A stretch of 64,000 bases of DNA from an uncultured Lentisphaerales bacterium (GCA_943788985.1 CALSSJ010000044.1:36660-100659), one strand, 5' to 3'; positions 1 through 64,000 are shown, counted from the stretch's first letter. A program made the numbers and translations. Notes: generated by a model not told the origin, from the sequence alone.

Positions 1-3000
1 ATGTAGTAGCGCTGCCCGGCCTGCAAGGTGACCGGCTCTGACTCCTGAGCGGCCGTGCGAATCTGCCGCACGCTGTTCCAATCATCCGTAAAGGCAACCA
101 CCGCAGTGTCAGCGGCAGAATCTGTGACGCTCAGTAACAGAGTCGCCTCACGATCGCCGGACACGTAAAAGGTGTACTCGCCGGTGGCCGGCGGATGCAG
201 GTAGCCTCGCACACGCGTGCCGTAGTGGTAGCCCCCAATGACTCGGCCCCTCAAAGGTACTGAGGTGGTCACTGAACGTTGGCGAATCAGGATAGCGCTC
301 GTCTTCTCTACCAAGTCCTCAACCGAGCCACCACGTACGTCCAGCCATACCTCGCGCAGAATGCCACCGACAGCCTGATTCAGCGGCTCAAGCACGGTCA
401 CCATGACCGTGTCACGGTGACTGGCAGCATCACAGGTCACTGTCAGCTCCAGTTCATAAACACCGGGCGCCTGCAAGGTCAACGTGGTCTCGGGATCGCT
501 TGCAGCCAGAAAACCGGCCCCCGCAGGGCCACTCAGCTGCCGCCACCGGACTGCTGGCTCTCCATCTTGGCCACGTCGAAACTGGATTCTGCCAGCCAGC
601 GCCAACTCACTACGTGGGAAATAGATCTCGCGATCTGGTCCGGCGTCTGCGAAGACCTTAATTGCCTCGTCGACAGGCGCGGCGTCCTCTCTACTCCACG
701 GAGAAAGCATACTACCGGGAACAATAGACAGTGCTGGCGACCATGGCGTGGACCAGGCAACGGCCACATGATCACCACCCCAGCCCTCTTTGTGCAGGAC
801 TTCGACATAATACCGCTCACCAGCCTCCAATTCCACCCAGATAGAAAGTTGCTCTTCGTACCGATCCCAATCTTCGGGAGACGTCGCCCCCGGGACCTGC
901 GCGATCAATGTTGCCGTCGCGGGATCGTCGCCAGCCCCCAGCAGCAGTTGACACTCGTCATCCCCCGAAATCGCAAACCTATACTGCCCGCTCACGGGGG
1001 CATGCAGATAGCCACGAATCCGCGTCCCGTAGCCGTCGCTCCAATGAACCGGCGTCGCCAAGCGTGGAAGCAGATCACGAAAATATGGATTGTCCGGGTA
1101 ATTCTCGTGATTCAGCAGTAGCTGTACCTCGTTGTACCAGACATCAGTCCACACCTCGCGTAGAATTGAACCGGTATTTGGTGCCAGTGCGCGGTGCAAA
1201 CGAACGATGACCTCATCGCTATGCACCACCGCACCTTCGATGCTGGCATCCAGGCGGATTACGTATTCGCCCTCAGCCGGGAGCGTCAGTGCGGTAGTCT
1301 CTCCTGTTTGATCGGCGATCGCTGCCTGAGTCGGCCCATCAATCTGCGTCCACCGAAAGGTCACCAGTTCTGGCTCCACGCTCATGGCGAAGACCTGCGC
1401 GGTGAGCGTCGTCTCCTGCTGCGGGCAGTACACCTCCTGATCATCACCGGCATATGCCACAGCGACCGGCAATGCCGTGGCGCGCGGCGCGTCCAAATAG
1501 GGCATCAAAAACACGGAATCAATCACCTGGCGTTCGATGTCCGGCCCTTGCCAGCCGACCGTCAGATAGTCGTGTCCACCGCCGTCCTTGTGAATTGCCC
1601 GAATTAGGTAACTCCGACCGGCCTCAAGCTCGATCTCGGCGGAAGCCTGCGAGTCCCGATAGTCCCAATTCCGGTAGCTGGTCCAGATATTCAGGTGGGC
1701 GATCTGCGTCAGACCAGCAGCGTCTTCGCTGTCGCTGAGAAACAGCGCACTATGGTCGTCGCTAGCGATGAAGAAGCGGTAGGTGCCAGTTGTTGGCGGC
1801 ACCAGCAGCGCAGTCAATTGCTGCCCGTAGTTATCGGCCCAAGGCTCTGGAGTCTCGAACGACTCAAGCGTGTCCACCACCATCGGCGCTTGGAGATACG
1901 CCTCGCTCGAAAGCAAGTTATCCACCCCGCCGCCGGAAACTCCCAGCCACACTTCACGAGTCACGCCCGTCACGCCCTCAATCAGACTCTGCCGGAGAGC
2001 AATTTCCACGTTGTCCACCGCCAGGTTGTAGCCGTCCACTGCCGTGACCTGAAATTCATACACTCCAGCGGCTGGCAAGGCCACCGTCGTCTCAAGCGCG
2101 CTAGGGTCTGCGATGTTCGCAACGCCCAGCCCCGACACTTGCCGCCACTCCACCTCGACTTCGGCATCCCAACGACGCTTAAAATAGTCTGCCTTCAGCC
2201 TGAATGTCTGCCGCGGCAGATAGCCGCTGCTATCCGGCCCGGCTCCAACCGCGAGTTCTACGCGGGGCAACAGCAGGGGCGCTGGCTGAACTGGTGACAA
2301 GTGTGTGCCCCCAATAGCCTGGCGTTCAAACACCCCTTCCAGTTCCCAGGCCACGGACAAACTGTCTCCGCCGCCAGCTTCCTTTTGCAGCCCTTCGATG
2401 TAGTACACTTGGCCAGCCTCCAGGTGGACTGCCACGGAGCGCTGTTCCTGAAATTTATCCCACTCCAGCGCCGCGGTCCAATCGCTCACAGTGGCGATTA
2501 GCACGGCTCCGCTAGGGTGCTCCGAATCAGAAAGATAAAGGGCACACTGGTCATCGCCAGAGACCCAGAACACGTAGTCGCCTGTGACCGGAGGATGAAG
2601 ATAGCCATGGACACGCGCTCCATAGCCCCAGCCCCAATTCACTGGGGTTGCGAAGCTGGTGAGCGCATCGCTAAAAGTCGGATTGTCCGGGTAGGTCGCG
2701 TGCTGCACCAGGTCAACAAGCCGCTTCCCCCAGATCCCTGTCCAGACTTCGCGGGTCACGGTTCCGCGCTCAAGCGCATTCGTGCCAGTTATGTGGGCTG
2801 CGTAGTCCGCAATGTTGGACATCCCGTCAAAATTCACGTCCCGCTCTCTGTCATGGGAGCCCGGATCGAGTCCCTTAGCCAGCTCGTAGGCGTCATGCAT
2901 GCCGTCACTGTCCGCGTCATCAAACATCGGATTTTTGCCCGTAACATACAACTCGTCGACACAAACCGGCCCGGCAAACGTCAGCTCACGAAGGCTCTGC

Positions 3001-3539
3001 GCGGCGCCGCTCAACGGCAGATCTGCGGCGAGCAGCCGTTTGTTGCCATACAAATCCCAGCGTTCCCGCAAAAAATCGATGCGGGCCGTAATCCGCAGCC
3101 AAATCTTCGAATGCCCGGCCGCGTCCACCGGAATCCGGCACTCCGTCAGCAGCCACGCGCTGTTCGCCCAAACCGCCACCACGCCAGCATCTGCACCGTC
3201 TGCCACGAAACCGATCGCCGCGGTGTCCGCAATCAAGAACGGCGTTTCCGCCACGCCGGGCCGGTAGTAGGCATCCACAAACACCGTCGCGGACTCATTC
3301 TCGCGAAAGGGAATTGTCGCCTCACCACTAGCCTCAACCACCAGGCTCTGACTGTGCTTCGCCTGATCGGCTGAGGTGATGGACACCCCACCCGCAACCG
3401 TCCAGCCTAGCTCCGTCAGGTCACTGTCGACCGCGTAGTTCTCCCACGTTTCGAACCGGACTCGCTCCGGTATCTTGTTCTGCGCCTCGGCATAGAAGGC
3501 GGCAAAAGTCATGGCCAGTAGTAATATCCTTGCTGTCAC
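1..3539 (-). CDS. Large secreted protein with >=4 tandem PA14 + PKD/Ig-like modules (3' end outside window)
   Basis: Manual translation from GTG 3539 gives a signal-peptide-like start (MTARILLLAMTFAAFYAEA), DxDxDG-like motifs (DADSDGMHD), then repeated 'REVW...YGxRxxGYLHPP.TG.Y.F.xSGDD...LEAG..YY...KE.GG' PA14 units about every 790-800 bp, separated by 'AGPD...W.Q.SG...G.YE..LTV' PKD-like units. The frame is open to the window edge, so it is absent from the ORF track. Confidence 0.85.
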   Translation of the reverse strand, partial: MTARILLLAMTFAAFYAEAQNKIPERVRFETWENYAVDSDLTELGWTVAGGVSITSADQAKHSQSLVVEASGEATIPFRENESATVFVDAYYRPGVAETPFLIADTAAIGFVADGADAGVVAVWANSAWLLTECRIPVDAAGHSKIWLRITARIDFLRERWDLYGNKRLLAADLPLSGAAQSLRELTFAGPVCVDELYVTGKNPMFDDADSDGMHDAYELAKGLDPGSHDRERDVNFDGMSNIADYAAHITGTNALERGTVTREVWTGIWGKRLVDLVQHATYPDNPTFSDALTSFATPVNWGWGYGARVHGYLHPPVTGDYVFWVSGDDQCALYLSDSEHPSGAVLIATVSDWTAALEWDKFQEQRSVAVHLEAGQVYYIEGLQKEAGGGDSLSVAWELEGVFERQAIGGTHLSPVQPAPLLLPRVELAVGAGPDSSGYLPRQTFRLKADYFKRRWDAEVEVEWRQVSGLGVANIADPSALETTVALPAAGVYEFQVTAVDGYNLAVDNVEIALRQSLIEGVTGVTREVWLGVSGGGVDNLLSSEAYLQAPMVVDTLESFETPEPWADNYGQQLTALLVPPTTGTYRFFIASDDHSALFLSDSEDAAGLTQIAHLNIWTSYRNWDYRDSQASAEIELEAGRSYLIRAIHKDGGGHDYLTVGWQGPDIERQVIDSVFLMPYLDAPRATALPVAVAYAGDDQEVYCPQQETTLTAQVFAMSVEPELVTFRWTQIDGPTQAAIADQTGETTALTLPAEGEYVIRLDASIEGAVVHSDEVIVRLHRALAPNTGSILREVWTDVWYNEVQLLLNHENYPDNPYFRDLLPRLATPVHWSDGYGTRIRGYLHAPVSGQYRFAISGDDECQLLLGAGDDPATATLIAQVPGATSPEDWDRYEEQLSIWVELEAGERYYVEVLHKEGWGGDHVAVAWSTPWSPALSIVPGSMLSPWSREDAAPVDEAIKVFADAGPDREIYFPRSELALAGRIQFRRGQDGEPAVRWRQLSGPAGAGFLAASDPETTLTLQAPGVYELELTVTCDAASHRDTVMVTVLEPLNQAVGGILREVWLDVRGGSVEDLVEKTSAILIRQRSVTTSVPLRGRVIGGYHYGTRVRGYLHPPATGEYTFYVSGDREATLLLSVTDSAADTAVVAFTDDWNSVRQIRTAAQESEPVTLQAGQRYY

Positions 3540-3744
3540 GTCTCATCGCTCTCTGGGTATAGCCTTCTCGGTAACAAAACGATCTTCGATTAACCTACCG
3601 TAGGTAGTTTGTGGCGTTAGGACAATCCCGATTTCCCATAATAACCCGGAAATATCTGCGATGGTTGCCACTTGCCTGTTGCAGGGTGGCTGCCTGAGGG
3701 TAGATTTCAATCTACTCGTTCCTGTCGAACCAGCCGTAGGGGCT

Positions 3745-4524
3745 ATGGAGCAGCTTTCCTTTGATGTTACGTTGTTTTCTGCTGACAGTGCGAATCTGTC
3801 CGCTCACTTGTCGCGAGGAAAGCTCCGACAAGGCGTACTTGCTTGGGTAGCAGCGCAAGGAGCCGACGCGATTGGCCTTGACGTTGTCACCAGAAACCAG
3901 CGGTTTCGTGCTCCCATCGGCGCGTTTTGGAGCAGCCCCGCTCAACTGGCGGCAAAGTCCATGCTTGTGGAAATCAAGACCTCGCGCGCAGCTTGCTGGC
4001 CGGACCATGTTCGTTCTGAGAACCTGCTCCCAGAGCTCCGGAGCCTCAAGCGAGACCGCCAGACTTTGCTGGCAGAGATTCGTGATGCCGAGCCACATCT
4101 CCGCTGTAGCCAGTCGCTCTTCGAAGAGTTTGCAGAGTGGAATTATGAGAAATCTGACAATCCCGCCTATCAGCAACTGAGCGAAGATATCCGGCGCGTA
4201 CAGACTGCCATCTATCGCGGAACCCGCTTCGAGCGGCTCGCTGCCGGGACGATGGCCCACAAACTCTACCTAGCCGTGCCTGAAGGCGCTGTACACCCGG
4301 ACGAGTTGGCCGACGGCTGGGGCCTACTTTGGGTACACGAAGATCAAAGCGTGACCTGCGTCGCTGATGCCACACACCACACCTGCCCCCAGGATGATGT
4401 AAACCGCTTCGCAGTTGCAATTGCGAAGTCCGCAAAAGCCTGCGTGCTGTTTGCCACTGGCATCGACGAGGCGCACGCATGCCGGATTGTGCAACCACCG
4501 CGCCGAAGACGAAAACCCCAATGA
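3745..4524 (+). CDS. Hypothetical protein, MmcB-like PD-(D/E)XK fold with large helical insertion
   Basis: Motifs 'MLVEIKTSRA' and 'HKLYLAVPEGAVHPDELADGWGLLWV'; ATG 3745 follows AGGGG; stop overlaps the next ATG. Confidence 0.55.
   Translation: MEQLSFDVTLFSADSANLSAHLSRGKLRQGVLAWVAAQGADAIGLDVVTRNQRFRAPIGAFWSSPAQLAAKSMLVEIKTSRAACWPDHVRSENLLPELRSLKRDRQTLLAEIRDAEPHLRCSQSLFEEFAEWNYEKSDNPAYQQLSEDIRRVQTAIYRGTRFERLAAGTMAHKLYLAVPEGAVHPDELADGWGLLWVHEDQSVTCVADATHHTCPQDDVNRFAVAIAKSAKACVLFATGIDEAHACRIVQPPRRRRKPQ
4421..4435. repeat. Dispersed palindrome TTGCGRASTYCGCAA, perfect copy
   Basis: TTGCGAAGTCCGCAA inside CDS (encodes IAKSAK). Confidence 0.9.
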
Positions 4525-5501
4525 GCAGAAAACGGGGAAAGGCACTACGGACACGCCTCACAAGGTCACTGCTCAAAAACTGTTTCCCCCTACTGAGCCG
4601 CGCGCTAGCCCTCTGCCCCAGGCTACTGGCCCACGGCCTCGCCAGGCTCGCGTCTTGGATCATCTGGTCCCTTCCCAATGAGCGCAAACTTCTGCGCACC
4701 AATCTGACCATCGCCTTTCCTAAAAAAACATCCAGCCAACGTGCCCGCATCGCTCGGGCCTCGGTCAGTCACCTCATCTACGCCTCTTTTGCCTTCGCTC
4801 GTGCAGCACGAGATCCTAGCCGCATCCTTGAACTCATGACCTACGACGAAGAAGAACTTGCCGCCTTCCAAAATGCCGGTGGAGCCATCCTCATCAGCCC
4901 TCATCTAGGCCACTGGGAAGTGGGACATCTCGCCGTGAACCTACTGGGGATGCAGACCGTCACCGTCTCCCGAAAGCATCGCTACGACGAGGTCGAAAAC
5001 TTTCTTAAAACCGCGCGCACCTGCACCGGTGCCCAAATGGTCTATCAGGCTGGGGCCGTGCGCGGCATGCTCAAAGGGCTGCGGGCTGGCCACAAAATAT
5101 TCATCCTGGTCGACCAGAATATTCGGCCACGAGACGGTGGTGTCTATGCCCCCTTCTTCGGCCTGCCCGCAACCGTCAGCCGGGCCCCCGCCTCCCTCGC
5201 CGCCAAGGCCGCCGGCGGCGTCTGGCTTGGAGCCTGCCTGCTTGAACCTGATGGCAAGTTTCGCCTCACTTGCCGGAAAATTGACCTACTAGGTTCCGAA
5301 AGCGATGAAGCCGCTATGGCACAGGTAAATTCAGCTACAGAAGCCATTGTCCGAGAGTTTCCGGAACAATACCTGTGGTGGTATAAGCGCTGGCTCTTCA
5401 TACCTGACGAAGCCGACACAGCGGACTATCCCTACTACGCACGGACGATCCGCAACTCAGCTGGTTCCATTACGTCAACCCAACGGACGATGAAGCCTTG
5501 A
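4521..5501 (+). CDS. Lipid A late acyltransferase (LpxL/HtrB family)
   Basis: 'SPHLGHWEV', 'ILVDQN', 'PFFG.PA', 'PEQYLWWYKRW' family motifs. Confidence 0.85.
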   Translation: MSRKRGKALRTRLTRSLLKNCFPLLSRALALCPRLLAHGLARLASWIIWSLPNERKLLRTNLTIAFPKKTSSQRARIARASVSHLIYASFAFARAARDPSRILELMTYDEEELAAFQNAGGAILISPHLGHWEVGHLAVNLLGMQTVTVSRKHRYDEVENFLKTARTCTGAQMVYQAGAVRGMLKGLRAGHKIFILVDQNIRPRDGGVYAPFFGLPATVSRAPASLAAKAAGGVWLGACLLEPDGKFRLTCRKIDLLGSESDEAAMAQVNSATEAIVREFPEQYLWWYKRWLFIPDEADTADYPYYARTIRNSAGSITSTQRTMKP

Positions 5502-5518
5502 TTTTCCTGCGTGCCGTT

Positions 5519-5995
5519 TGCCAGAGCGTCGCCTAGGGACTCGAATACCTGCACAACCTAAAACAGCCCGTGATCGACGGCAATGTCCGGCCCCGGCACA
5601 TGCGCATCACTCCCGATGGCGAAATCAAGCTCATCAGCTTTGGCTCTGCTTACTTCGCCTGGAGCGAACCGCCACACCGCGAGCCGGACGAATACGCCGC
5701 ACCAGAACAGTTGCTCTACATGGAGGGCAGGAGGATCAGCCCTGATCTTGAGACAGACCGCTACTCCCTGGCATCCGCGATGAACTACGGATTCTGCGGC
5801 CAGCATCGCTTTCTTAGTGTGCAGAACACCACCGATTCAGCCGCCCGCCTCAAGAGCGCAATCTTTGCTCGCAAAATACCGCTTCGCAAGAAAAACGAAC
5901 GACATGCTGGATGCCAGCCCCGTAAGGCGACCATCCTTCTAAGATCTACATCTCGTCTTGGCAGATCCCTATGGCGAAGACGCATCGGAGCCTGA
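5519..5995 (+). pseudogene. Ser/Thr protein kinase fragment
   Basis: CQSVA*GLEYLHNLKQPVIDGNVRPRHM...IKLISFG...YAAPEQL...TDRYSLA. In-frame TAG at 5534, HRD/DFG degenerate, N-lobe missing. Confidence 0.65.
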
Positions 5996-6073
5996 AGAAC
6001 CACCAGCGGCTGAATGTCCCCCCATACTCCCGCAGGCTCCCCCGGCAGCTGAAGAGTAGCACTGACTGCCATC

Positions 6074-6598
6074 TCACAGGCCCGCCACAGCCAGCGCCTG
6101 CCCCACCAGCTTGCTTGCTTGCTCTGCTGTAATCACCGCACCGTCGGCTAAATCACTGACCACCTTCAAGACAGACAGCGGCAGCTGACCACACGCAGCG
6201 GCAATCGCTCCGGTCTCCATCTCCACCAACGTCTCTACTCCCTCAGTTTGCGGAGTTCGCACCGTCGTCAACGGCCGTGCGGGCATTCCCGGCCACGGAC
6301 GCAGCGGGTACAGCTGTCCGTCCCACGCAACTGCCTCAGCCGTGAACACATCCCCGAACTGCACCTCTGGCGTCCCGCCGCAAATCCCGACGTTGCGAAG
6401 TTCGCAAATCTCGGAAAACTCGCGGAGCAAAGCACCTGTGGCCGCGCTCGCGCGCTCAGGCCCGACCCCCGTGATCGCCACGATGGCGTTATCCTTGCGA
6501 TAGATGCGAAAGCCCAGCGCACTTGGCACGCGCCGTGCCTGCAGCCGCGTCAATATCGGCTGCGCCTCACAGCGTAAGGCACACAACCAGGCAATCAC
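6074..6598 (-). CDS. Nucleoside phosphorylase / MTA-SAH nucleosidase-like protein
   Basis: 'ITGVGPERA', 'NVGICGG', 'VEMETGAI', 'LKVVSD'. Confidence 0.75.
   Translation of the reverse strand: MIAWLCALRCEAQPILTRLQARRVPSALGFRIYRKDNAIVAITGVGPERASAATGALLREFSEICELRNVGICGGTPEVQFGDVFTAEAVAWDGQLYPLRPWPGMPARPLTTVRTPQTEGVETLVEMETGAIAAACGQLPLSVLKVVSDLADGAVITAEQASKLVGQALAVAGL
6393..6407. repeat. Dispersed palindrome TTGCGRASTYCGCAA, perfect copy
   Basis: TTGCGAAGTTCGCAA inside CDS (ICELRN); a 14/15 copy lies at 6248-6262. Confidence 0.9.
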
Positions 6599-6606
6599 CG
6601 CTCAGC

Positions 6607-7263
6607 CTACGCGCCCCAGCGCGCCCGATAGTCCGCGATCGCGCGCAGAATCTCCGCCGAGACCAGCCCATGCTCCGTGACATGTGCCACGATCTCGGAA
6701 AGAGTGACGATCGCAAAGGCAGGCATGTCGTAGGTAGTCGCCAGTTCATCCAGCGCATTGCGCTCACCGGTCCCCTTCTCCTCCCGATCCACGGATACGA
6801 TCAGACCCGCGAGCGTAACGTCCGCCGCGCTGCGCAGCAGCGGTACGGTCTCACGCACAGACGTCCCAGCCGTCACCACATCTTCGACAATCACAACGCG
6901 CTCGCCATCGCCGAAAGGATGCCCGACAAAGACTCCCTTCTCGCCGTGATCCTTCGCTTCCTTGCGGTTGAATGTGAAGTTCACCGTATGATCATGCTCC
7001 GCAGCGAGCGCCATAGACGCGGTCACAACCAGCGGCACCCCTTTGTACGCGGGGCCAAAAAGCGTGTCGTACTCCCGTCCCAGCCGATCAGCCAGCGCCG
7101 CCGCGTAGAACGAGCCCAACTTCGCAATCTGCGGCCCGGTCGCGTATTGCCCGGTATTAATGAAGTATGGGGTTTTCCGCCCGCTCTTTGTCGTGAAATC
7201 CCCGAACCGAAGCCCGCCAGAATCTAGCATAAAGGAAATAAAATTTTGCTTATAGTTCGTCAT
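6607..7263 (-). CDS. pyrE: Orotate phosphoribosyltransferase
   Basis: 'FGDFTTKSGRKTPYF', 'FGPAYKG', 'FNRKEAKDHGE', PRPP loop 'IVEDVVTAGTS'. Confidence 0.97.
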   Translation of the reverse strand: MTNYKQNFISFMLDSGGLRFGDFTTKSGRKTPYFINTGQYATGPQIAKLGSFYAAALADRLGREYDTLFGPAYKGVPLVVTASMALAAEHDHTVNFTFNRKEAKDHGEKGVFVGHPFGDGERVVIVEDVVTAGTSVRETVPLLRSAADVTLAGLIVSVDREEKGTGERNALDELATTYDMPAFAIVTLSEIVAHVTEHGLVSAEILRAIADYRARWGA

Positions 7264-8741
7264 TCGTCAGCAAACTCCCAAGCATGACGTTCGCGCAGAG
7301 CTGGCACAGCGTTACCGCGCCCGGTGGCCTCCAGACGCTCTACATATCGTTTCAGATGGCCACTCGCATGCAACGGGCCACCTTCCGCCATGACCTCCCA
7401 CATCGGGTCTGAGCTACTCGGGCTGCTGGCCATCATGTCATCATGCCAATCCAGTAGCCGGGAAGCGCCCTCACGACAGATCTCCGGATGCGCCTCCGCC
7501 AAGTCAAACTGCTCATGCGGATCGCTCTCAAGATTGTACAGCATCTCCTTCGGGAACAGGTGATAGCCGTCGTGATACGTACGCATGTACAGCCACGGCC
7601 CAAAGCGCACGCTTCGCTGGCAAACATGGGCACATTGGCTGATCACCAGCTGGTCGCGCCCAGTCGCCTCGCCGTCTTGTATCGCAGCAGCAAAACTCTC
7701 GCCATCCCAGCGCGGGCGCGCCGCCACACCGGTCAGTTCTGCCAGTGTCGGGGCCAGGTCCACATTATAATGCAACCCCTCATTCACGCAGGCCTCTTCC
7801 ATGCCGGGCCAGTGTACAATCAGCGGCACTCGGCAGGTGATCGAGTCAGCCGTACCGTGCTCGCCGTAGATCCCAAGCTCGCCCTGGTTCTCACCATGAT
7901 CAGCCGTCACGATCACCACCACATCATCCAGCCCGACTCCCTGGGCCTCCAGCCCTGCCAGGATCCGACCGACATGCTCGTCTGCCCAGTTCACACCGCA
8001 GTCATAGCCATCGATCATCCGCCGCAAATCTTCCATTGTCTGCAACTCACCCGGCTGCCTCGGAAACGCAGGGAGCTCATCTCCGTTGTACATGTTAATG
8101 TCCAACGCAGTGTGCGGTCCTGCCATCTTCTTATGGCCCTCAAGCACATCTTCCGTCAGCCATTCCGGGAGCGGGTCGTCCGCAAAAGGATTCCCTAACT
8201 CTTCTGGCGTTCGGTAGGGCGTATGCGGGTCCCAGTAGTTCACGTAGAGAAACCAGTCATCATCTGCCGCATTGTCTGCGATCCACTTGAGCACAACTGG
8301 AGTGACTTCCTCTGCAGATTCCTGCCCGCCCTTTCCCGTGTTGTGCACTTCATTGAAGCCAGCGTAGAACGTCCAGCAGGTGTGACGTTCGGGAAAAGGG
8401 CTAACCAGCGTGGTTTTCATGCCCAGTTTACGAAAGATGGTAGGCAACGCATCCTCGTACAGCTCCGAGCGAAAGTTACGCCCCGGCCCTTCGAGGCGCA
8501 TATCGGCCGCAGTGCCACCGTGCCCGACCACGCCAGTATGAATCCCAAACCGGCCACTCATCAAGGCTGTACGAGAGGGCAAGCAGGGTGCATCTGAGCA
8601 GTAATAGTTCGTAAATCGAACTGCCCTCTCGGCAATTCGATCAATGTTCGGTGAGGTATTTCGATGGTAGCCGTAGCACCCGAGATGATCGGGCCGAAGG
8701 CTATCAATGTCACACAGAAGTACGCGCATCTGGATCCTCAT
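7260..8741 (-). CDS. Sulfatase (Cys-type)
   Basis: 'DIDSLRPDHL', CxPxR 'CLPSRTALMSG', 'YWDPH', 'TADHGE'. Confidence 0.93.
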   Translation of the reverse strand: MRIQMRVLLCDIDSLRPDHLGCYGYHRNTSPNIDRIAERAVRFTNYYCSDAPCLPSRTALMSGRFGIHTGVVGHGGTAADMRLEGPGRNFRSELYEDALPTIFRKLGMKTTLVSPFPERHTCWTFYAGFNEVHNTGKGGQESAEEVTPVVLKWIADNAADDDWFLYVNYWDPHTPYRTPEELGNPFADDPLPEWLTEDVLEGHKKMAGPHTALDINMYNGDELPAFPRQPGELQTMEDLRRMIDGYDCGVNWADEHVGRILAGLEAQGVGLDDVVVIVTADHGENQGELGIYGEHGTADSITCRVPLIVHWPGMEEACVNEGLHYNVDLAPTLAELTGVAARPRWDGESFAAAIQDGEATGRDQLVISQCAHVCQRSVRFGPWLYMRTYHDGYHLFPKEMLYNLESDPHEQFDLAEAHPEICREGASRLLDWHDDMMASSPSSSDPMWEVMAEGGPLHASGHLKRYVERLEATGRGNAVPALRERHAWEFADE

Positions 8742-8768
8742 ACCCTTCAGGCCGCAAATGGAGGCTCT

Positions 8769-11989: not shown

Positions 11990-12051
11990 TCACGAATTCT
12001 CCGCATTTAAAACTACAGAACTGCGGTCTTACCATACTCCCAGCGCCCCAA

Positions 12052-12789: not shown

Positions 12790-12834
12790 TCCCGTGCCCG
12801 GCCCGCCGCGTCACCTCCAACGGAGTTCGCCCGA

Positions 12835-32919: not shown

Positions 32920-32947
32920 TTGAACTTCGCGCAAAGATGGGACTGTG

Positions 32948-53135: not shown

Positions 53136-53177
53136 GATTTCCCGCTGACGGTTGATAATGTGACTTTCTCGTGCCGG

Positions 53178-53192
53178 TTGCGAAGTTCGCAA
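53178..53192. repeat. Dispersed palindrome TTGCGRASTYCGCAA, perfect intergenic copy
   Basis: TTGCGAAGTTCGCAA about 43 bp upstream of the parA start. Confidence 0.9.
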
Positions 53193-53334
53193 ACACGCTC
53201 CGGCCCAAACCCATGCCAGCCCGCCGTGAACAATCGCCATCCCGGTGTAACGTAGCGCGTTTTCTCGCCGAGCTTCGATCCTCCCAAATAGAGCGCCTAC
53301 TTGCCGTGATTCCAGTTGATTTGCAGCCAGCCAC

Positions 53335-54276: not shown

Positions 54277-54298
54277 ATCACTTCCACCCGAAGGCCAA

Positions 54299-55177
54299 GT
54301 GAAACAACCCAACGTAGTGTTTCTTTTCGCTGACGAATGGCGCGCGTAGGCCACCGGCAACGTAGGCGATCCCAACTGCGAGAGCGCCGTGCTTGATGAG
54401 CTCACTCGGCACAGCCTCAATCTCACACATGCGGCGAGTGGCTGCTTCGTCTGCTGTCCCTTTCGCGGAAGCCTCATGTCCGGCCAGTATCCCCTCACCC
54501 ACGGCGTCTTCATCAACGACGTCGAGTTGTCCCTCGACTGCAACAGCATTGCCCGCGCCTTTAACGATGGCGAATACCACACCGCCTACATCGGCAAATG
54601 GCATCTATACGGCAGTCCTGACGGGCTCTGCGCGCGCCGATCCCTGCCTGCCCGTGGCCGGCTCGCACCAGCTCGGCTTTGATGATTGGAAAGGCGTCGA
54701 GTGCACGCGCGACTACCAGAACTCCGGCTACTATCACAACAAAGCCCACCCTCCATCCATGGGGCGACCACGACGCCTTTGGCCGAAGCCGCACCGCCGC
54801 CCAACACATCCGCGATCACGCCTTCGACATCATGCCCACGCTCCTCCGGCTCTGCGGTTTGCGAACTCCGCAAACCGTCGAAGGTAGAGACTGGTCTCCG
54901 GAGATACGTGGCGAGCAACTCGTAGCCGAAAACGACGCCGCCTTCCTCAACATGCCCGTGCCCCACACCGAGCTGCAATTCAACGACATACTCCCCTTAC
55001 CGCGGCGTGCGCACCATGCGCCACACCTACCTACCTGCCCAAGACGGGTCCTGGCTCCTTCGGGACGACAAGACCGATCCCTACCAAATGAGCAACCTCA
55101 TCAATGCACCCGAGCACGCTGAATTACAGGCCTACCTCGAAGCATTGCTCCAGCAAAAGCTAAGAATTCCACGATAG
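54299..55177 (+). pseudogene. Sulfatase pseudogene
   Basis: 'KQPNVVFLFADEWRA*', 'CCPFRGSLMSGQYP', 'TAYIGKWHL', 'DIMPTLL'; stop, frameshifts and internal deletion. Confidence 0.8.
54859..54873. repeat. Dispersed palindrome TTGCGRASTYCGCAA, perfect copy
   Basis: TTGCGAACTCCGCAA (LRTPQ) within the sulfatase pseudogene. Confidence 0.9.
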
Positions 55178-55680
55178 TACGGGACCAGTTCCGCCTCACT
55201 AGCATTCCGACCAAAGCGGCAACTTACTCCGGCACCCGCGTAATCACCGCAGCAGAAGCAGCAGCTGGCCTGCCCTTCGTGCGCGCCGAAGGCATTAGCA
55301 TCATCGGTCCCAGCACCATCCATCCCATCCGGGTTCGCTCGCAGCAGAACCTTGCGACGGTGGCATAATACTCACTTGGGACCACACCGTAGCCCCTCCA
55401 GAAAGCCGCTAAAGTGTATACCGCAGCGACTCCTCCGGAAAGAACTACGCGAAAATAGCCAGCGCCCCTAGAGGTGTTGCCGTTGCCGGAGCCAGGTGGC
55501 GGCAACTTTTCGTGAATCGCGGGTCGTTGAGTAGTACGTAGTGCCTTTCTATCTGGGTGCAATTTGTTGCAATGACGTGTTTTGGTGTGCGGTGTGGGTG
55601 CCGGAGAAACGGAAGCGAGCTCTGCTGAGTATCAACTCGCCGAGGGATAGCCGGAGCGGTAATGACGCAATGTCGGCAAC

Positions 55681-55813: not shown

Positions 55814-56946
55814 TCATGCTGCTTCCTCTGCGTGAAATTGCCGCGGTGTTCGATAGTCGAGTGTAGAATGCGGGCGGGTGGCGTGGTAGCGCTCAAACCA
55901 GTCTGCGAGACCTTTGCCCAATTCACGCGGTGTGGCGTACGCATTGAGGTAAACGTCTTCATATTTGGCACTGCGCCAAAGCCTCTCAATGCGGACATTG
56001 TCGATCCAGCGTCCCGTTCCATCCATGCTGACAAGAGTGCCCGCGTCTTTAACGCGCTTAATCCAAGCCGCGCTGGTGTACCGACTGCCTTGGTCGCTGT
56101 TTATGATCTGCGGGCACCTTCCTGTCGCCAGGGCTATTGTCAATGCATCCAGGCACAGGGTGGTTTCCATCGTGGTGGACACTGCCCACCCTAAGGCTCC
56201 ACGCGTGTGCCAGTCCATGACGCATGCCAAATAGCAAAAGCCGCGGGCCATCGGGATATAGGTGATATCCGTACACCACACCTGGTCAGCCTTGCTGATC
56301 TCCAGGCCGCAAAGAAGGTACGGATAAAATCTTGTGCCCGCCAGCTCGTATCCCGGTGCGCGGGCGGCGGTAGCTGACGCGGATCCTTGCAGCTCTCATC
56401 AGCCGACGCAAGCGTCGGCGTCCCAAGCTGTAACCGTGATCGCGGCGCAGGACCGCGTTCAACCGCCGGGCGCCAAATGTCGGCTCACGCACATGAATGC
56501 TATCCAGCAGCACCATAATCTTCTGGTCTTCGGCATTGGCTGTCGGCTCAACGCCCTGAAGGCGGTTTCGGTTGACGTCAAGCAGCTCACACTGTCTACG
56601 AATAGACAGCAGGGGATGGTCTTTCTCGATCATCTTCTTTCTCATCGATCGATCCCCAGCTGCTCGCACTTTTTTCAAGATACCCCTTCTCCATGACGAG
56701 TTGGCCAACCTTGCGCTCAAGGGTAGCGCACTTCTTCTCGAGAGAGTCTCGCGCATCGTCAACGGCGTTGGTTCTCTCGAACAGCAGTGCCATATTGGCT
56801 TCGAGTTCCTTCTTCCACGCCGAGACCTGGGACACATGGATTTCGTTGTCGCCAGCAATCTCTGCGACAGTCTTGAGCCCTTGAATGGCTTCGCGGGCGA
56901 TGCGCGCCTCGAAGGCGCTACTGTGATTACGTCGGGGGCGTCTCAT
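55814..56946 (-). mobile_element. IS3-family element (orfA/orfB); element probably spans about 55540-57025
   Basis: orfA 'RRNHSSAFEARIAREAIQG.KTVAEIA'; A6G slippery site near 56670; orfB 'WCTDITYIPM', 'NSDQGS', 'DNVRIERLWRS.KYE'; extra frameshift near 56328. Confidence 0.9.
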
Positions 56947-57562: not shown

Positions 57563-58183
57563 ATGATCGCGATTATTGACTACAGAGCGGGCAACCTCAC
57601 CAGCGTCCGCCTGGCTTTTGACAAGCTGAACATCCTATCCGAAATCACCCGCGACCCAGCGCGTATTCGCGCCGCGGAGAGAGTCGTCTTTCCAGGCGAC
57701 GGCGCAGCCGGAAGCGCCATGGCTAATCTGGACGAACTCGAGTTGCGCGATGTGATCACCGAGGTGTCGGCCGATCGCCCCTTTCTCGGCATCTGCGTCG
57801 GCACTCAGATCATCTTGGATTATTCCCAAGAGAATGGCGGCGTGCCCTGTCTGGGGCTGCTCCCCGGCACCGTAGAGCGCTTTCAAACAGCTGACCCGTT
57901 TACCAAAATCCCACAGATGGGCTGGAACGCAGTCGCGCCCGTGTGCCCGCATCCGCTGTTTGCCGGCATTGAGCCCGGAAGCGAATTCTACTTTATTCAC
58001 AGCTACTATCCTGCTCCCACCAGCCCAGACCACGTGCTGGCGCGGACGGACTACGCAGATGTCGCTTTTGCCTCAGTCGTTGGCCGCGACAATCTCGCTG
58101 CCACCCAGTTTCATCCGGAGCGCTCCGGGCGCATTGGCCTCCAGTTGCTTAAGAATTTTGCAGAGTGGGATGGCGTATGCTGA
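57563..58183 (+). CDS. hisH: Imidazole glycerol phosphate synthase, glutaminase subunit
   Basis: 'IIDYRAGNLTSV', 'LGICVGTQ', 'IPQMGWN', 'YFIHSY', 'QFHPERS'. Confidence 0.95.
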   Translation: MIAIIDYRAGNLTSVRLAFDKLNILSEITRDPARIRAAERVVFPGDGAAGSAMANLDELELRDVITEVSADRPFLGICVGTQIILDYSQENGGVPCLGLLPGTVERFQTADPFTKIPQMGWNAVAPVCPHPLFAGIEPGSEFYFIHSYYPAPTSPDHVLARTDYADVAFASVVGRDNLAATQFHPERSGRIGLQLLKNFAEWDGVC

Positions 58184-58956
58184 CCAAACGAATTGTCCCC
58201 TGCCTCGACGTCCACAACCGCGTCGTCACCAAAGGCGTAAAGTTTCAAAACAACGTCGAAATCGGCGACCCCATCGAGATGGCCGTGGCCTACAGCGATG
58301 GCGGCTGTGACGAATTGGTCTTCTACGACATCACTGCCTCCGCCGAGCGCCGCCCGATCGATATCGAAATGGTGCGCGACGTCGCTAAGGCCGTCCAGAT
58401 CCCGTTTGCCGTCGGCGGCGGGATCTCAGAGTTGGCCGACATGTACCGGGTTCTCGACGCTGGCGCGGAGAAAGTCTCGGTAAATTCCCTGGCGGTGCGG
58501 AGTCCGCAGATCATTGCCGATGGCGCCAAAGCCTTTGGCTCCCAGTGCATCGTGCTGGGTATGGATCCCGTAGCCCACAACGACCGCGAACGCTTTCCGA
58601 GCGGCTACGAGGTCACCACCCAAGGCTTTCGCACCCGCACCGGCATGGATGCGCTCGAGTGGGCCCGACGAGCCGAAGGGCTCGGCGTCGGCGAAATCGT
58701 CGTCAACTCAGTCGATGCAGACGGAACCCGCGACGGCTTCGAGCTCACGCTCACCGGCATGATCGCTCGCGAAGTCCGCATTCCGGTCGTCGCCAGCGGC
58801 GGCGCTGGCACCCCACAGCACCTCGCAGACGTCTTTCTTAAAGCCCGCGCTGACGCTGCGATCATCGCTAGCATGGTGCATACCGGCGACTACACGATCG
58901 CCGTCATCAAACAAGAACTAGACCAAGCTGGCGTGCCCATTCGCCGCCATTGGTAG
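58177..58956 (+). CDS. hisF: Imidazole glycerol phosphate synthase, cyclase subunit
   Basis: 'MLTKRIVPCLDV', 'DELVFYDITAS', 'VGGGI', 'DADGTRDGF', 'VASGGAG'. Confidence 0.97.
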   Translation: MLTKRIVPCLDVHNRVVTKGVKFQNNVEIGDPIEMAVAYSDGGCDELVFYDITASAERRPIDIEMVRDVAKAVQIPFAVGGGISELADMYRVLDAGAEKVSVNSLAVRSPQIIADGAKAFGSQCIVLGMDPVAHNDRERFPSGYEVTTQGFRTRTGMDALEWARRAEGLGVGEIVVNSVDADGTRDGFELTLTGMIAREVRIPVVASGGAGTPQHLADVFLKARADAAIIASMVHTGDYTIAVIKQELDQAGVPIRRHW

Positions 58957-58958
58957 TC

Positions 58959-61055
58959 ATGAAACTAGAAATCGGAACCCGTAGCAGCCAACTTGCCCTG
59001 ACCCAGGCGCAGGATGCACTCGAGCGCTTGATGGCCGAACTGCCACGCCTCGAGCTCTCGCTCCAGCCCATGTCCAGCCCCGGAGACCACGATCGCTCGA
59101 CCGACCTGCGGGTCAGCGATCCAGACTTCTTCACCCGCTTTCTCGACGAGGCCGTCCTCGCGGGCGAGGTCGACGCGGCTGTGCACAGCGCCAAAGACGT
59201 GCCCTACCCTGTCCGCGAAGGACTCGACTGGTTCTGGCTACCCTGGCACGAGGATCCGCGCGATGCCCTCGTACTGCGCGCCGGAGAATCCCGCGCAGAT
59301 CTGCCGGACGCACCAGTTTGCGGCGTTAGCAGCGACCGTCGTGACGAGTGGTGCAAAGCCCAATTTCCAACGGCGGTGCACCAGCCAATCCGCGGCAATA
59401 TCGAAGAGCGCATCGCCCAGCTGGATGCAGGCGACTACGACGCGGTGATCATCGCCGGAGCCGCCCTCAACCGGCTCGGCCTCCAGGATCGTATTAGCGA
59501 GTGGATTCCTTGCGCCGAGCTGCCACCGCCCGAAGCACAGGGCTGGCTCTGCCTGACCTTCCGCGAGGATGACGCCCGCTTTCGCACCATCCGTCAACGA
59601 TTCGTCTATGCCGTGACCCTGATCGGCGGCGGGCCAGGCGCAGACTACTGCACCCAGGCTGGTATCAAAGCGTTGCAGACCTGCGACGTCTGCCTGTACG
59701 ACGCCTTGGTCTCGAAGGACCTGCTGCGCCACATTCCTGCCGACGCCATCGCTATGGATGTCGGCAAGCGCGCCGGACGCTACCAAGTCGAGCGCGTCGA
59801 TGTCGACCGCATGATCAGCGACTACGCCCGCCAAGGCCGCCGCGTAGCGCGCTTAAAAGGCGGTGACCCCGGAATCTTCGGCCGCGCCGCACAGGAAATC
59901 GAATCGCTTCAGGAAATGTCCCTGCCCTGGCGCGTCATTGCGGGCGTCAGCAGCCTCCAGGCCGCGACCAACGAAACTGGCTGGTTTCTCACCCGCCGCG
60001 GCGTAAACACCGGCTTCACGCTGCTGACTTCGCGACTTGCGAACTCCGCAGTTGCCACGATTCAGGGCGAACATCGGCGAGATCTGCCGCTCGCATTCTT
60101 CATGCCGCTCAGAGTCCTAGACGCGTTGGTCAAAGCCCTGATCGATGAAGGGCGCAATCCCTACCAGCCCTCTGCCATGATTTTCGCCGCTGGTTCGCAC
60201 CAGCGCCAAGTGATCTCGGCACCGCTGTGCAAAATTTCTGAGGCCGTGGCCGAGAGCATGATCAACAAGCATCCTGCGCTGTTCATCGTCGGCGATACCA
60301 TGGCCCCCGAGTTTCTGCAGTTGCCGACTGGCCCGCTGCGCAATCGGCGCATCTTGTTGACCGGCAGTACCAACCTGATGCCCGCCCTCACCCAAGACGT
60401 GCTCTGGCGAGCTGGCGTTCCCCTGCCCTGCCCGCTGATCGAGCTGACCACGGAGCCTGCAGCCGGAGAGTTACTGCAGAACGTATCCGACTTTGACTGG
60501 ATTACGGTGACCAGCCCAGCCGCAGTACGCTGCCTGTTTGAGCTGCTGCGTGCCTTGGCGATCGACGTGCGCGAGCTACCCAAGATCATGGTCAGCGGCC
60601 CCGGCTGCGCCCAGGCACTCGCATCTTATTGCGTTTCGCCCGACCTCGGCCCTGAGACAGACTTTGGCGCGGCCGGCCTCGTGGCTGCTGCGGCCACAAC
60701 CGTGCAGCCTGGCGAACGCGTGCTGCGGCTCAAGTCCGACCGCGCGCCAGCGACGCTGAGTGACGGCCTGCGCGCCATCAAGGCAGAGGTGACCGAATGT
60801 GTGTTATACCGCAATCAGGCAGTGGAACAGCCGGAACTCCTCGAGTTCGACGCCGTGCTATTCCTGAGCAGCAGCGCTGTGGATGGCTTTGTCGACCGCT
60901 GGGGCACTGGCCCGCTGGCAGATACCGTGATCGTGGCCATTGGCCCACCGACGGCGGCGACCTGTGAGCACCACGGTCTCACGCCGTTGGTTGCGAACTC
61001 CGCAACCTCAGGCGGCTGCCTCGACACGCTCCAAAACCACTGGGCGTTCGACTAA
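58959..61055 (+). CDS. HemC (lacking domain 3) - uroporphyrinogen-III methyltransferase (CobA) - HemD triple fusion
   Basis: HemC 'IGTRSSQLAL.Q', 'VHSAKD', 'SSDRR', 'IRGNIEERI'; CobA 'GGGPG', 'YDALV', 'VGKRAG', 'RLKGGDPGIFGR'; HemD 'VTSPAAV', 'LY.N', 'FLSSSAV', 'IGPPTA'. Confidence 0.9.
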   Translation: MKLEIGTRSSQLALTQAQDALERLMAELPRLELSLQPMSSPGDHDRSTDLRVSDPDFFTRFLDEAVLAGEVDAAVHSAKDVPYPVREGLDWFWLPWHEDPRDALVLRAGESRADLPDAPVCGVSSDRRDEWCKAQFPTAVHQPIRGNIEERIAQLDAGDYDAVIIAGAALNRLGLQDRISEWIPCAELPPPEAQGWLCLTFREDDARFRTIRQRFVYAVTLIGGGPGADYCTQAGIKALQTCDVCLYDALVSKDLLRHIPADAIAMDVGKRAGRYQVERVDVDRMISDYARQGRRVARLKGGDPGIFGRAAQEIESLQEMSLPWRVIAGVSSLQAATNETGWFLTRRGVNTGFTLLTSRLANSAVATIQGEHRRDLPLAFFMPLRVLDALVKALIDEGRNPYQPSAMIFAAGSHQRQVISAPLCKISEAVAESMINKHPALFIVGDTMAPEFLQLPTGPLRNRRILLTGSTNLMPALTQDVLWRAGVPLPCPLIELTTEPAAGELLQNVSDFDWITVTSPAAVRCLFELLRALAIDVRELPKIMVSGPGCAQALASYCVSPDLGPETDFGAAGLVAAAATTVQPGERVLRLKSDRAPATLSDGLRAIKAEVTECVLYRNQAVEQPELLEFDAVLFLSSSAVDGFVDRWGTGPLADTVIVAIGPPTAATCEHHGLTPLVANSATSGGCLDTLQNHWAFD
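60991..61005. repeat. Dispersed palindrome TTGCGRASTYCGCAA, perfect copy
   Basis: TTGCGAACTCCGCAA (VANSAT); a 14/15 copy lies at 60037-60051. Confidence 0.9.
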
Positions 61056-61127: not shown

Positions 61128-61340
61128 TTAGGATGCCCACTCCATCCCAAGCTTGCGATGCTGAAGCGCACAGTCTCGCAGATAGAGATTAATCAGCGTT
61201 TGATAGGGGATCCCGTTCTCCTCAGACATCTTCTTGAAATAGTCGATTACGTCTACCCCAAGGCGAATCGTGACTTGCTTCTTCAGCTTACTGGCGTACG
61301 GATTGGGCTTTGAATCCGAAAAATCGTACTCTTCTCTCAT
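61128..61340 (-). CDS. BrnA-family antitoxin
   Basis: 'MREEYDFS...NPY...KKQVTIRL..DVIDYFK...GIPYQTLINLYL'; coupled to BrnT. Confidence 0.88.
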   Translation of the reverse strand: MREEYDFSDSKPNPYASKLKKQVTIRLGVDVIDYFKKMSEENGIPYQTLINLYLRDCALQHRKLGMEWAS

Positions 61341-61624
61341 AGGAACTGTCCGTATTGCTTGCGTTCGTGTGGCTCTGTCTTGCGAGCAGAGATGACTCGA
61401 ATGACCTCATCATCCCTGTTGCGGTGGCAGTGGCAGACGATGAGTAGCCGTGCAGACGTCGACATGCCAAGCAGGATAAAGTGATCTTCTTCTTCGGAGC
61501 GATCAGGATCGAATATGATCAGGCCAAATGGATCAGCAAACGCGGTCGTCGCCTGCTCAAAGGAAAATCCATGCTTCTGCAGTTTGATTGCTGCTTTGTC
61601 TGGATCCCACTCGAATTCAATCAT
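61337..61624 (-). CDS. BrnT-family ribonuclease toxin
   Basis: 'FEWDPDKA...KHG.SFE.A...F.DP', 'IRVISARK...ERKQY'. Confidence 0.9.
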   Translation of the reverse strand: MIEFEWDPDKAAIKLQKHGFSFEQATTAFADPFGLIIFDPDRSEEEDHFILLGMSTSARLLIVCHCHRNRDDEVIRVISARKTEPHERKQYGQFL

Positions 61625-61717
61625 ATTTACAATGTATTTCTCAGGGGCATACGTCAAGCTTGACTGTCGCGCCGAAATCTTGGCAGAAAAATCTTCCTCG
61701 ACCTACATCCTCGCCTA

Positions 61718-62461: not shown

Positions 62462-63010
62462 ATGCATACGCGCACCTTTATCATCGCCTGCGTCTTGTTG
62501 GGCATTCTTGTGTTCCTGGCCCTTCAGAGACAGAGCCAACCCGTGGTCGCGCCGCAGGCGGCCGAGGAGAAGCCAGCTCCCAAGCCGGTGGCCGCCGAGC
62601 ATGTGGTCCGCCAGCCCACCAGTAAGGCCACAGATAGCCCCGGAGCCACTTTTCTGCTGGAAGGCTATGCGGACCCCAAACGCACGATCGTCGACGACCT
62701 CAAACTGGTCGACCACGTCTTCCGCGAGTATCAGGTCGCCTTCCGCGGGAATCCAGTCGGGACCAACGCAGAGATCATGGCCCGGTTTCAGGGACATAAT
62801 TCACGCAAGATCGTATACGTACCTGAGCAACACACCTACATTAATGCAGCGGGAGAACTGCTGGATCGCTGGAGCCGTCCGCTGTTCTTCCACCAACAAT
62901 CCTCGCACCTAATGGAGATCCGCTCCGCTGGACCGGATGGCAGCCATTGGACCGAGGATGACATCGTTTTCCCGCCCCCTGAGCCCGAGCCCCCTGAAAA
63001 AACGCCCTAA
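62462..63010 (+). CDS. Hypothetical membrane-anchored protein with GspG-like C-terminus
   Basis: N-terminal TM; '[11 protein letters not shown]...[15 protein letters not shown]'. Confidence 0.65.
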
Positions 63011-63014
63011 AATC

Positions 63015-64000
63015 ATGTCTGTACCTGCTCCCCTGAATCCCGGTCAACGCGTCCTGATGGGCCCTGGTCCCAGCGACGCCAATCCTCGTGTATTGAGGGC
63101 CATGGCCACGCCGCTCATTGGGCATTTGGACCCGGACTTCATTCAGATCATGGATGAGATCAAGGACATGCTGCGCACAGCGTTTCGGACCCAGAACGAG
63201 CTAACGATCCCGATCTCAGCGCCTGGCAGCGCTGGCATGGAGACTTGCCTGGTGAATCTGCTTGAGCCCGGCGATCGCGCGATCGTCTGCGTCAACGGCG
63301 TGTTTGGCGGACGCATGGCCGACATTGTCGAGCGCTGCGGCGCGACCGCAATCCGAGTCGAGGCCGAATGGGGCCAGCCGATCGCCCCCGAGAAAGTAGC
63401 AGACGCGCTGGCTGCAAACTCTGCAAAGCTCGTTTGCATCGTCCATGCCGAGACGTCGACCGGCGTGCTGCAACCACTGGAAGAGATTGCGAACCTCGCA
63501 CATGAGCACGAAGCGCTCATCGTGGTAGACACAGTCACATCCTTCTGCGGATCCGCGCTGGAAGTCGACGCCTGGGGCTTGGACGCCGTCTACACGGGGA
63601 CTCAAAAGTGCCTAAGCGCGCCTCCCGGAATCTCGCCGGTCACGTTCAGTGAGCGCGCGGTAGCGGTCATGGATGCGCGCAAAACGAAGGTCCAGAGCTG
63701 GTTTCTCGATCTGTCGATGGTGCGGAACTACTGGACAGGTGCCAAACGTGCCTACCACCACACCGCGCCGGTCAGCAGCATGTACGCCCTGCACGAGGCA
63801 CTGCGCATCGTCCTCGAAGAAGGACTCGAGCCGCGCTGGAAGCGCCATCAACAGAATCATGTCCTACTTCGCCATGGCTTGCAGGAACTTGGCTTCAAAT
63901 ACCTGGTCTCACCAGAGTATCGCTTGCCGATGCTGAACGCAGTGCATCTTCCTTCTGGTTGTGAGGATGCCGCCACTGCGCGGCGCACTGTTAGATCGTT
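63015..64000 (+). CDS. Alanine-glyoxylate / class V PLP aminotransferase (partial, runs off window)
   Basis: Manual translation from ATG 63015: 'LMGPGPSD', 'GHLDP', 'NGVFGGR', 'VHAETSTG', 'VDTVTS', '[11 protein letters not shown]', 'YHHT'. Confidence 0.92.

Follow-up and report, generated by a model that had tools for sequence, protein, structure and literature searches.

Why should one long palindrome recur in gene after gene of a bacterial chromosome, and what might read it? The question is raised by a 64,000-nucleotide stretch of DNA from an uncultured Lentisphaerales bacterium (GCA_943788985.1 CALSSJ010000044.1:36660-100659), called the window throughout, in which a 15-bp word, TTGCG-RASTY-CGCAA (TTGCGRASTYCGCAA), is scattered through unrelated genes. 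A first reading of this DNA, referred to below as the original prediction, had proposed the word as a chromosome-wide site for protein binding or DNA recognition. Its abundance in the window is independent of the proteins encoded there and of their codon usage, and its symmetry suggests that it is read as double-stranded DNA.

Over-representation of the palindrome

Nine perfect copies were found in the window against 0.01 expected from dinucleotide shuffles, none of 100 of which reached nine. When up to two mismatches were allowed (near copies), the count was 29 against 0.66 expected, and the largest shuffle gave three; a weaker copy at 37551, with three mismatches, lies outside this count. 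In an unbiased count of the window's inverted repeats, with 5-bp arms and spacers of 0–9, the sole outlier was this 15-bp word, seen as TTGCG-N5-CGCAA (n = 10) and in its inner registers, TGCGR-N3-YCGCA (n = 17). The RASTY centre was present in 20 of the 82 GCG-N5-CGC sites.

Synonymous codons were then shuffled by two schemes, within genes and window-wide (300 shuffles each), preserving every protein and the codon usage. The means were 1.06–1.07 perfect and 4.6–5.0 near copies, and the maxima 2 and 10, compared with the 9 and 29 observed. One perfect copy lies outside the shuffled gene set; for coding DNA after codon shuffling, the comparison is between about 8 perfect copies observed and about 0.06 expected. 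The over-representation is thus independent of protein sequence and codon usage. The original prediction had taken the word for a signal at the level of DNA, as opposed to a peptide motif, a transposable element or chance, and had named the codon-preserving shuffle as a control; the enrichment withstood that control in the window, and the flanks and other genomes described below agree with the shuffles.

Locally this amounts to 0.14 perfect and 0.45 near copies per kb, or one per 2.2–7 kb, and roughly half of the genes in the window carry the word. In 80 panC loci from 80 other genomes (1,266,911 bp), 0, 0 and 3 copies were found at 0, 1 and 2 mismatches respectively. The spelling of the word is lineage-specific.

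Symmetry, coding context and origin of the copies

No flank position from −11 to 0 holds more than 0.18 bit of information, which bears out the earlier remark that flanking homology is absent. There is therefore no longer element around the word, such as a miniature inverted-repeat transposable element (MITE) or a repetitive extragenic palindrome (REP). Among the 29 copies the outermost base pair takes 20 of the 33 mismatches, so that the firm core is TGCGRASTYCGCA; the word as a whole is 13–15 bp long, with a degenerate symmetric centre and a specificity of about 21 bits. R at position 6 and Y at position 10 vary without regard to each other and show no pairing covariation (AC 8, GC 8, AT 7, GT 5, TC 1), and the centre is mirror-symmetric (A7/T9, R6/Y10). 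Isolated half-sites TTGCGRA outside full copies numbered 22, against 22.1 ± 4.8 expected; thus only the full dyad is enriched. The symmetric 'loop' and the absent covariation speak for a two-fold symmetric dimer that reads the word as duplex DNA, and the reader is probably a homodimeric protein. Its two half-sites, TTGCGRA, would join at the central G/C, with the centres of the arms about one helical turn apart.

On the + strand the centre base is G in 20 copies and C in 8, and AC and GT at positions 6 and 10 stand at 8 to 5; neither count shows an interpretable strand bias. The isolated half-sites are strand-asymmetric, with 18 TYCGCAA and 4 TTGCGRA on the + strand, which exceeds the effect of a GC skew of about −0.1.

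Every one of the 29 copies falls within coding or pseudogene DNA. They occupy all three codon phases, as had been claimed, though unevenly (18, 6 and 5 copies in phases 1, 0 and 2; chi-square p = 0.0045). The favoured reading, in phase 1, is x-Ala-[EKDN]-[SF]-Ala-x, and the window's proteins have 0.94 A[EKDN][SF]A peptides per 1000 amino acids, about four times the rate in 119 HemCD homologues (0.24). Relative positions within genes range from 0.01 to 0.97, and 3 of the 29 copies lie within −150 to +30 of a gene start (background 0.127). Eight successive 8-kb bins contained 5, 3, 4, 3, 4, 1, 4 and 5 copies (p = 0.86). The spread is even and promoter-independent. GC skew is negative across the whole window, with no switch inside it that would mark an origin or terminus. 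That copies occur on both strands, as the original prediction put it, is uninformative for a palindrome, although the host genes do occupy both.

Six sites were compared with homologues: the copy in PanC with 80 loci, the two in HisF and the one in UPF0047 with solved structures, and the two in HemCD with 119 homologues. A gap was found at none of the six, indicating that the copies are substitutions and not 15-bp insertions. The PanC copy (33619) falls in one of the most variable six-residue stretches of that protein, at the 96th percentile of variability. In HemCD the central N and S encoded by copy 60037 match 4% and 3% of the homologues, in fairly conserved columns, and those of copy 60991 match 0% and 2%. 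The HisF copy at 58495 encodes VRSPQ where two solved homologues have VKNPE and VRRPE, and the copy at 58767 encodes AREVRI where solved homologues have SEAVSV and AEAVGV, in both cases with no insertion. In these alignments the DNA word thus overrides the usual choice of residue, which demands that some pressure act on the DNA itself.

Candidate functions and known systems

The reading that we favour, with a probability of roughly 0.4, is that a symmetric dimer recognises the word as duplex DNA, and that substitution spread the copies in response to a pressure on DNA that most likely concerns the preferential uptake or recombination of self-DNA. Copies would have been gained base by base in resident genes, wherever the codon phase and the place in the protein allowed it, and the driver would be a genome-wide pressure on the DNA and not on the proteins, such as preferential handling of motif-bearing DNA in uptake or recombination. 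The copies are dense and evenly spread, their spelling is peculiar to the lineage, and within genes they favour one frame and sit at residues of low conservation; all this argues for a place in the class of hyper-abundant genome-signature words, with highly iterated palindrome 1 (HIP1), the DNA uptake sequence (DUS) and the uptake signal sequence (USS). By likeness to DUS/USS, and to what has been proposed for HIP1, a self-DNA tag would be the most likely function. HIP1 and uptake sequences had been named second in the original prediction, and by density range and even spread they are the better fit.

HIP1 (GCGATCGC) is a cyanobacterial word, 15- to 300-fold over-represented and of unsettled function according to the available text of PMC5861425, and is proposed as a DNA uptake signal in the available parts of PMC13756078 and 10.1101/2024.09.10.611283. 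Like the window's word, it is a hyper-abundant palindrome in unrelated genes, made by substitution and lineage-specific, for which roles in structure or uptake have been put forward (PMC5861425, PMC13756078, same parts). It differs in being 8 bp long and fully specified, in occurring more than once per gene, compared with about once per 2–7 kb here, and in having sites reported as conserved both inside open reading frames (ORFs) and in the DNA separating them, whereas the window has no intergenic copy. The window's word is over-represented as HIP1 is, but it reads TTGCGRASTYCGCAA instead of GCGATCGC, and its PanC assigns the window to the Planctomycetes–Verrucomicrobia–Chlamydiae (PVC) group and not to the cyanobacteria.

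The uptake sequences of Neisseria and the Pasteurellaceae number 1,471, 765 and 1,892 per genome (Findlay and Redfield, PMC2817400, available portion), a density of the same order: about 0.3–0.9 per kb, compared with 0.14–0.45 per kb for the window's word, the latter a local count only. The same portion describes a frame bias and a placement at poorly conserved residues (PMC2817400). Both are found here, and the two kinds of word also have in common that the peptides they encode are unusually frequent and that relatives outside the lineage lack them. DUS and USS differ in being relatively enriched in intergenic DNA or at terminators; none of the 29 copies lies in the window's 8.9 kb of non-coding DNA. 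Since the word departs from HIP1 in sequence and taxon, and from DUS/USS in this one behaviour, it is a member of neither family.

Several observations weigh against a self-DNA tag. 'Genome-wide' is an extrapolation from one 64-kb window, and no motif-linked binding protein, competence gene or DNA methyltransferase was found in it; a search for the reader near the densest patch (53.2–54.9 kb) gave a ParA-like ATPase, a HExxH membrane protein and a dead sulfatase, with no DNA-binding candidate among them. We know of no competence genes or biased uptake in the window's lineage. DUS and USS are not palindromes, as the window's word is. Non-coding DNA (the window is 86% coding) holds 0 copies against about 4 expected (P = 0.013), whereas under a pure drive copies would be expected to accumulate in intergenic DNA, which tolerates them. 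According to the available portion of PMC2817400, only 34.5–65% of DUS/USS lie in ORFs, compared with 29 of 29 copies in ORFs or pseudogenes here. A relative of the HemCD protein (P0002, 71% identical), the one relative available for this comparison at the protein level, has the motif peptide at neither of the two HemCD sites and no motif-type peptide elsewhere. Finally, the DNA of the IS3 and IS4/IS1634-like insertion sequences and of BrnT (about 4.0 kb) contains 0 copies against 1.8 expected. The earlier statement that the insertion sequences and the methyltransferase gene are free of the word is true, but the deficit is not significant (P = 0.16); nor is the avoidance of genes without family matches, though both trends are in the expected direction.

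The main rival is that the word serves a sequence-specific dimer that organises the nucleoid or structures the chromosome, compacting, bridging or phasing the DNA at thousands of intragenic sites. It is a high-density form of the main idea of the original prediction, and the periodicity of HIP1 has been given an explanation of this sort. We regard this as unlikely, although it accounts rather better than a self-DNA tag does for the absence of copies from non-coding DNA: if the bound protein harms promoters, both the scarcity in non-coding DNA and the lack of promoter association are expected. Dyad symmetry fits a dimer, and Xu et al. favour a chromosome-structure role for HIP1 in the available text of PMC5861425. 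However, there is no regional gradient over 64 kb, the window yielded no candidate protein, and the gene for the ParA-like ATPase (52401–53450) has no ParB-like gene adjacent to it. The known systems MatP–matS, Noc with its binding site (NBS), SlmA with its binding site (SBS) and ParB–parS also use a short palindrome read by a dimer and often intragenic, and matS shares the layout of arms around a degenerate symmetric core. They have tens of sites on a chromosome, either limited to one macrodomain or kept out of it. The window alone has 29 evenly spread sites in 64 kb, at 10 to 100 times the density of matS, NBS, SBS and parS; the sequences are unrelated, and no MatP, Noc or SlmA gene was seen in the window. 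To our knowledge there is no precedent for such a density among these four systems. The matS, NBS and SBS analogies, which the original prediction put first, are not supported, the density here being one to two orders of magnitude higher and the spread even.

An origin in methylation or repair, in which the word is the target or by-product of an orphan methyltransferase or restriction–modification enzyme combined with biased mismatch repair or selection, as Elhai discussed for HIP1, seems to us improbable. Sites recognised by such enzymes typically have a central S and a symmetric degeneracy, as the word does. HIP1 has been tied to two methyltransferases (available text of PMC4390886 and PMC13756078). 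Other palindromes in the window are avoided in the manner of restriction sites (GCCGGC 0.48 times, GGCGCC 0.51 times expectation). On the other hand, we know of no methyltransferase site that approaches a specific 13–15 bp, and of no route by which short-patch repair would reach 21 bits of specificity. The central pentamers occur at expectation (for example GAGTC 48 against 54 expected, AAGTT 35 against 40), and the only methyltransferase genes in the window are those of a SpoU RNA methylase and of a protein of the Methyltransf_31/32 type that shows no link to DNA.

It is very improbable that the word acts as a hairpin in RNA or single-stranded DNA, as a site for an RNase or RNA-binding protein or as a pause signal. 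As a palindrome, the word would give one and the same stem-loop to each mRNA transcribed across it. Every copy does lie in transcribed coding or pseudogene DNA, and as DNA the 25-nucleotide contexts can form modest hairpins, at −5.6 to −6.2 kcal/mol (−11.4 at 54859, where the arms are extended by chance to a 9-bp stem), with z-scores of −2.6 to −5.0. Against this, positions 6 and 10 on the sense strand of the 27 gene-assigned copies are AT 7, GC 7, GT 6, GA 1 and, unpairable, AC 6; the loop is dyad-symmetric, which a loop has no need to be; neither starts nor ends of genes are preferred; and no Rfam family matched.

Derivation from an eroded mobile element (MITE or REP), or from an in-frame 15-bp mini-insertion, is scarcely credible. 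Fifteen bp make five codons, so that insertions would be frame-neutral, and the word is a dispersed palindromic repeat in many copies, as are REPs and bacterial interspersed mosaic elements, MITEs, Correia elements and Rickettsia palindromic elements. All of these, however, are longer, share flanks or internal sequence, and are intergenic or inserted as blocks. The window's word has no sequence beyond its core, no insertion polymorphism and no copy in the intergenic DNA where REPs and MITEs reside, and the ungapped alignments at six of six sites rule out the 15-bp in-frame insertion. As to chance, codon usage or a recurrent peptide, the one reading Ala-[EKDN]-[SF]-Ala common to 18 of the 29 copies is all that favours them, and the dinucleotide and codon shuffles, together with the 11 copies in the two minor phases, leave them next to no likelihood.

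No description of the motif strings or their N5 notations was found in the literature searched. Among the matches listed for Kiritimatiell* with palindrom*, the titles indicated no such motif; those listed for 'iterated palindrome' were all cyanobacterial, and a text search of Elhai's HIP paper returned no mention of other phyla. Hyper-abundant genome words are rare, being found mainly in cyanobacteria (HIP1) and two proteobacterial families (DUS/USS), and for three decades the role of HIP1 has stayed unsettled; a further, independent case from the PVC group would make the phenomenon broader. It is possible, if rather doubtful, that a deep-branching and hardly sampled PVC lineage independently evolved a tag akin to HIP1 and DUS to a new design, a 15-bp dyad with a degenerate centre, kept from non-coding DNA and read by a homodimer that marks self, for uptake, recombination or defence, or structures the nucleoid at roughly the thousand-site scale. 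A long symmetric site all but specifies a dimeric reader, and the word is strong enough to force atypical residues onto conserved positions of proteins. So long and specific a site would be a far better bait than the 8-bp HIP1 for the reader protein, and a better handle on the selective force. The word would also be a sharp lineage marker for binning and for detection of foreign DNA in a poorly sampled clade.

Lineage, host genes and other palindromes

By its PanC the window groups with Kiritimatiellota, Lentisphaerota and Verrucomicrobiota. It falls at the base of this PVC-group set, where the branching is unresolved, and the protein is at most 60% identical to any of the best 80 loci. These are the best 80 of at least 600 stretches matched in a genome-contig scan, and closer genomes may exist beyond them. 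Among the 80, apart from panC, 11 window proteins match any locus, each in one to three loci at 27–45% identity. The HemCD protein has one near-identical public copy, then P0002, then nothing above 52%; the lineage is therefore barely sampled. The HemC-CobA-HemD triple fusion is common to the window, Kiritimatiellota and Verrucomicrobiota.

All copies listed in the original prediction were verified, nine perfect, seven with one mismatch and eleven weaker (ten with two mismatches, one with three); three copies with two mismatches, at 2798, 53606 and 58767, had been overlooked. With ORF-based gene models, the PA14/PKD protein ORF at 3–3539(−) has two copies with two mismatches, both in phase 1, at 2108–2122 (CTGCGATGTTCGCAA; VANIAD) and 2798–2812 (IADYAA). 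A perfect copy at 4421–4435 lies in an ORF of no known family at 3661–4524(+) (phase 1, IAKSAK). The PNP_UDP_1-like ORF at 6074–6598(−) carries a one-mismatch copy at 6248–6262 (phase 0, VRTPQ) and a perfect one at 6393–6407 (phase 2, ICELRN). The alpha/beta hydrolase gene at 12052–12789(−) has two copies 24 bp apart, both in phase 1, one with two mismatches (12474–12488) and one perfect (12498–12512, IAESAN). Next come the perfect copy at 15528–15542 in the UPF0047/YjbQ gene 15202–15672(−) (phase 1, IAEFAI), which is the one compared with PDB homologues and free of insertion; a one-mismatch copy at 16816–16830 in the Glycos_transf_4 gene 15633–17423(−) (phase 2); and a two-mismatch copy at 18368–18382 in a gene of the uracil-DNA glycosylase family, 18136–18786(+) (phase 1).

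The SpoU methylase gene at 20498–21340(−) holds a one-mismatch copy at 20859–20873 (phase 2) and a two-mismatch copy at 21025–21039 (phase 1). At the 5′ end of the MATCAP-family ORF 27346–28611(+) is a one-mismatch copy (27346–27360) whose gene assignment is uncertain, because the called start of the ORF is the motif's own TTG; the same gene has a two-mismatch copy at 27836–27850 (phase 1). In the PMT_2 glycosyltransferase gene 31177–32919(+) a one-mismatch copy (31927–31941, phase 0) and a perfect copy (32738–32752; phase 1, LAESAK) were found, and in panC, 32945–33832(+), a perfect copy at 33619–33633 (phase 2, CCEVRK). Two-mismatch copies lie at 35266–35280 in the PhyH-family gene 34412–35293(−), at 41399–41413 in the LysM protein gene 40819–41517(+) and at 50254–50268 in the RecN/SMC-like gene 49188–50870(+), all in phase 1. 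The ketoacyl-synthase-like gene at 37336–39207(−) contains the three-mismatch copy at 37551–37565 (GCGCGAACTCCGCAC, phase 1) and a one-mismatch copy at 37899–37913 (phase 1, VANSAT).

Three copies lie within 1.7 kb around the ParA-like gene: a perfect one at 53178–53192, in the N-terminal extension of the gene at 52401–53450(−) (phase 0, LRTSQ), one with two mismatches at 53606–53620, in the ORF at 53335–54276(+) (phase 1, DAVSAT), and a perfect one at 54859–54873 in a degraded sulfatase gene (three frames, 54.3–55.18 kb), in phase 0 of the ORF at 54679–55122 (LRTPQ). The extension of the ATPase is about 100 residues long, and the gene is divergent from that ORF, which encodes 313 residues with HELCH and matches no family (region 52401–54276). 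The sulfatase gene (54290–55180, +; at least three frames) is represented by a fragment of the Sulfatase domain (E = 2.5e-11) and two of SGSH_C (E = 0.0012 and 0.09), and has retained its perfect copy. Further on, hisF, 58165–58956(+), has two-mismatch copies at 58495–58509 (phase 0) and 58767–58781 (phase 2); the hemC-cobA-hemD fusion gene, 58950–61055(+), has a one-mismatch copy at 60037–60051 (LANSAV) and a perfect copy at 60991–61005 (VANSAT), both in phase 1; and the class-V aminotransferase gene 62937–63998(+) has a two-mismatch copy at 63487–63501 (phase 1).

The gene content is that of an ordinary chromosomal region of a PVC-type bacterium, including sulfatases, the PA14 protein, a sigma-54 activator, an extracytoplasmic function (ECF) sigma factor, panC, hisF, carA, recN, priA and the hemC-cobA-hemD fusion. 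The priA gene, 12835–15025(−), is split between two overlapping ORFs in different frames, 13985–15025 (3'BD and DEAD domains) and 12835–14070 (Helicase_C and PriA_C), by a frameshift or a sequencing error. Two mobile elements are free of the word, an IS4/IS1634-like DDE fragment at 21664–23121(+), which is a weak match (E = 0.004), and an IS3-family element at 55814–56858(−) with rve and HTH_21 domains. The ORF at 61337–61657(−) contains a BrnT domain (E = 2.8e-23), which is that of the ribonuclease toxin in a type II toxin–antitoxin pair. Relative to Markov expectation GCCGGC and GGCGCC are rare and GGATCC is common (1.8 times), a bias that hints at restriction–modification pressure unrelated to the 15-mer.

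A second palindrome, TTCCA-RNNNY-TGGAA, which also has the 5-N5-5 layout, emerged from an unbiased scan of the 80 panC loci as abundant in those that are Pontiellaceae-like; no description of it was found in the literature searched. Locus L004 has 13 copies in 20.8 kb (2683–20650), compared with about 0.13 expected from arm frequencies, and L009, L002, L023, L003, L008, L012 and L030 have two to four each. Nine of the 13 copies in L004 lie within −150 to +30 of ORF starts (background 0.19, p = 1e-4), and copies form pairs and triplets about 31 bp apart, as at 6309, 6340 and 6371 of L002, between lysA and dapA. From this placement it is probably an operator, bound by some global regulator, or else an element of promoters. 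It was considered as a sister 'dialect' of the window's word and rejected: with 9 of 13 copies promoter-proximal, against 3 of 29 in the window, it is a different kind of element and lends no support to the self-DNA reading. Two other loci, L010 (7361–7480) and L018 (7369–7488), each carry, some 2.3 kb upstream of panC, a set of five palindromes of the form TTTTCCA-N5-TGGAAAA. Inside them is TTTTCCACA, which we take to fit the DnaA-box consensus. These arrays resemble DnaA-box clusters, were set aside as unrelated to the window's word, and are possibly an origin or a DnaA-regulated promoter.

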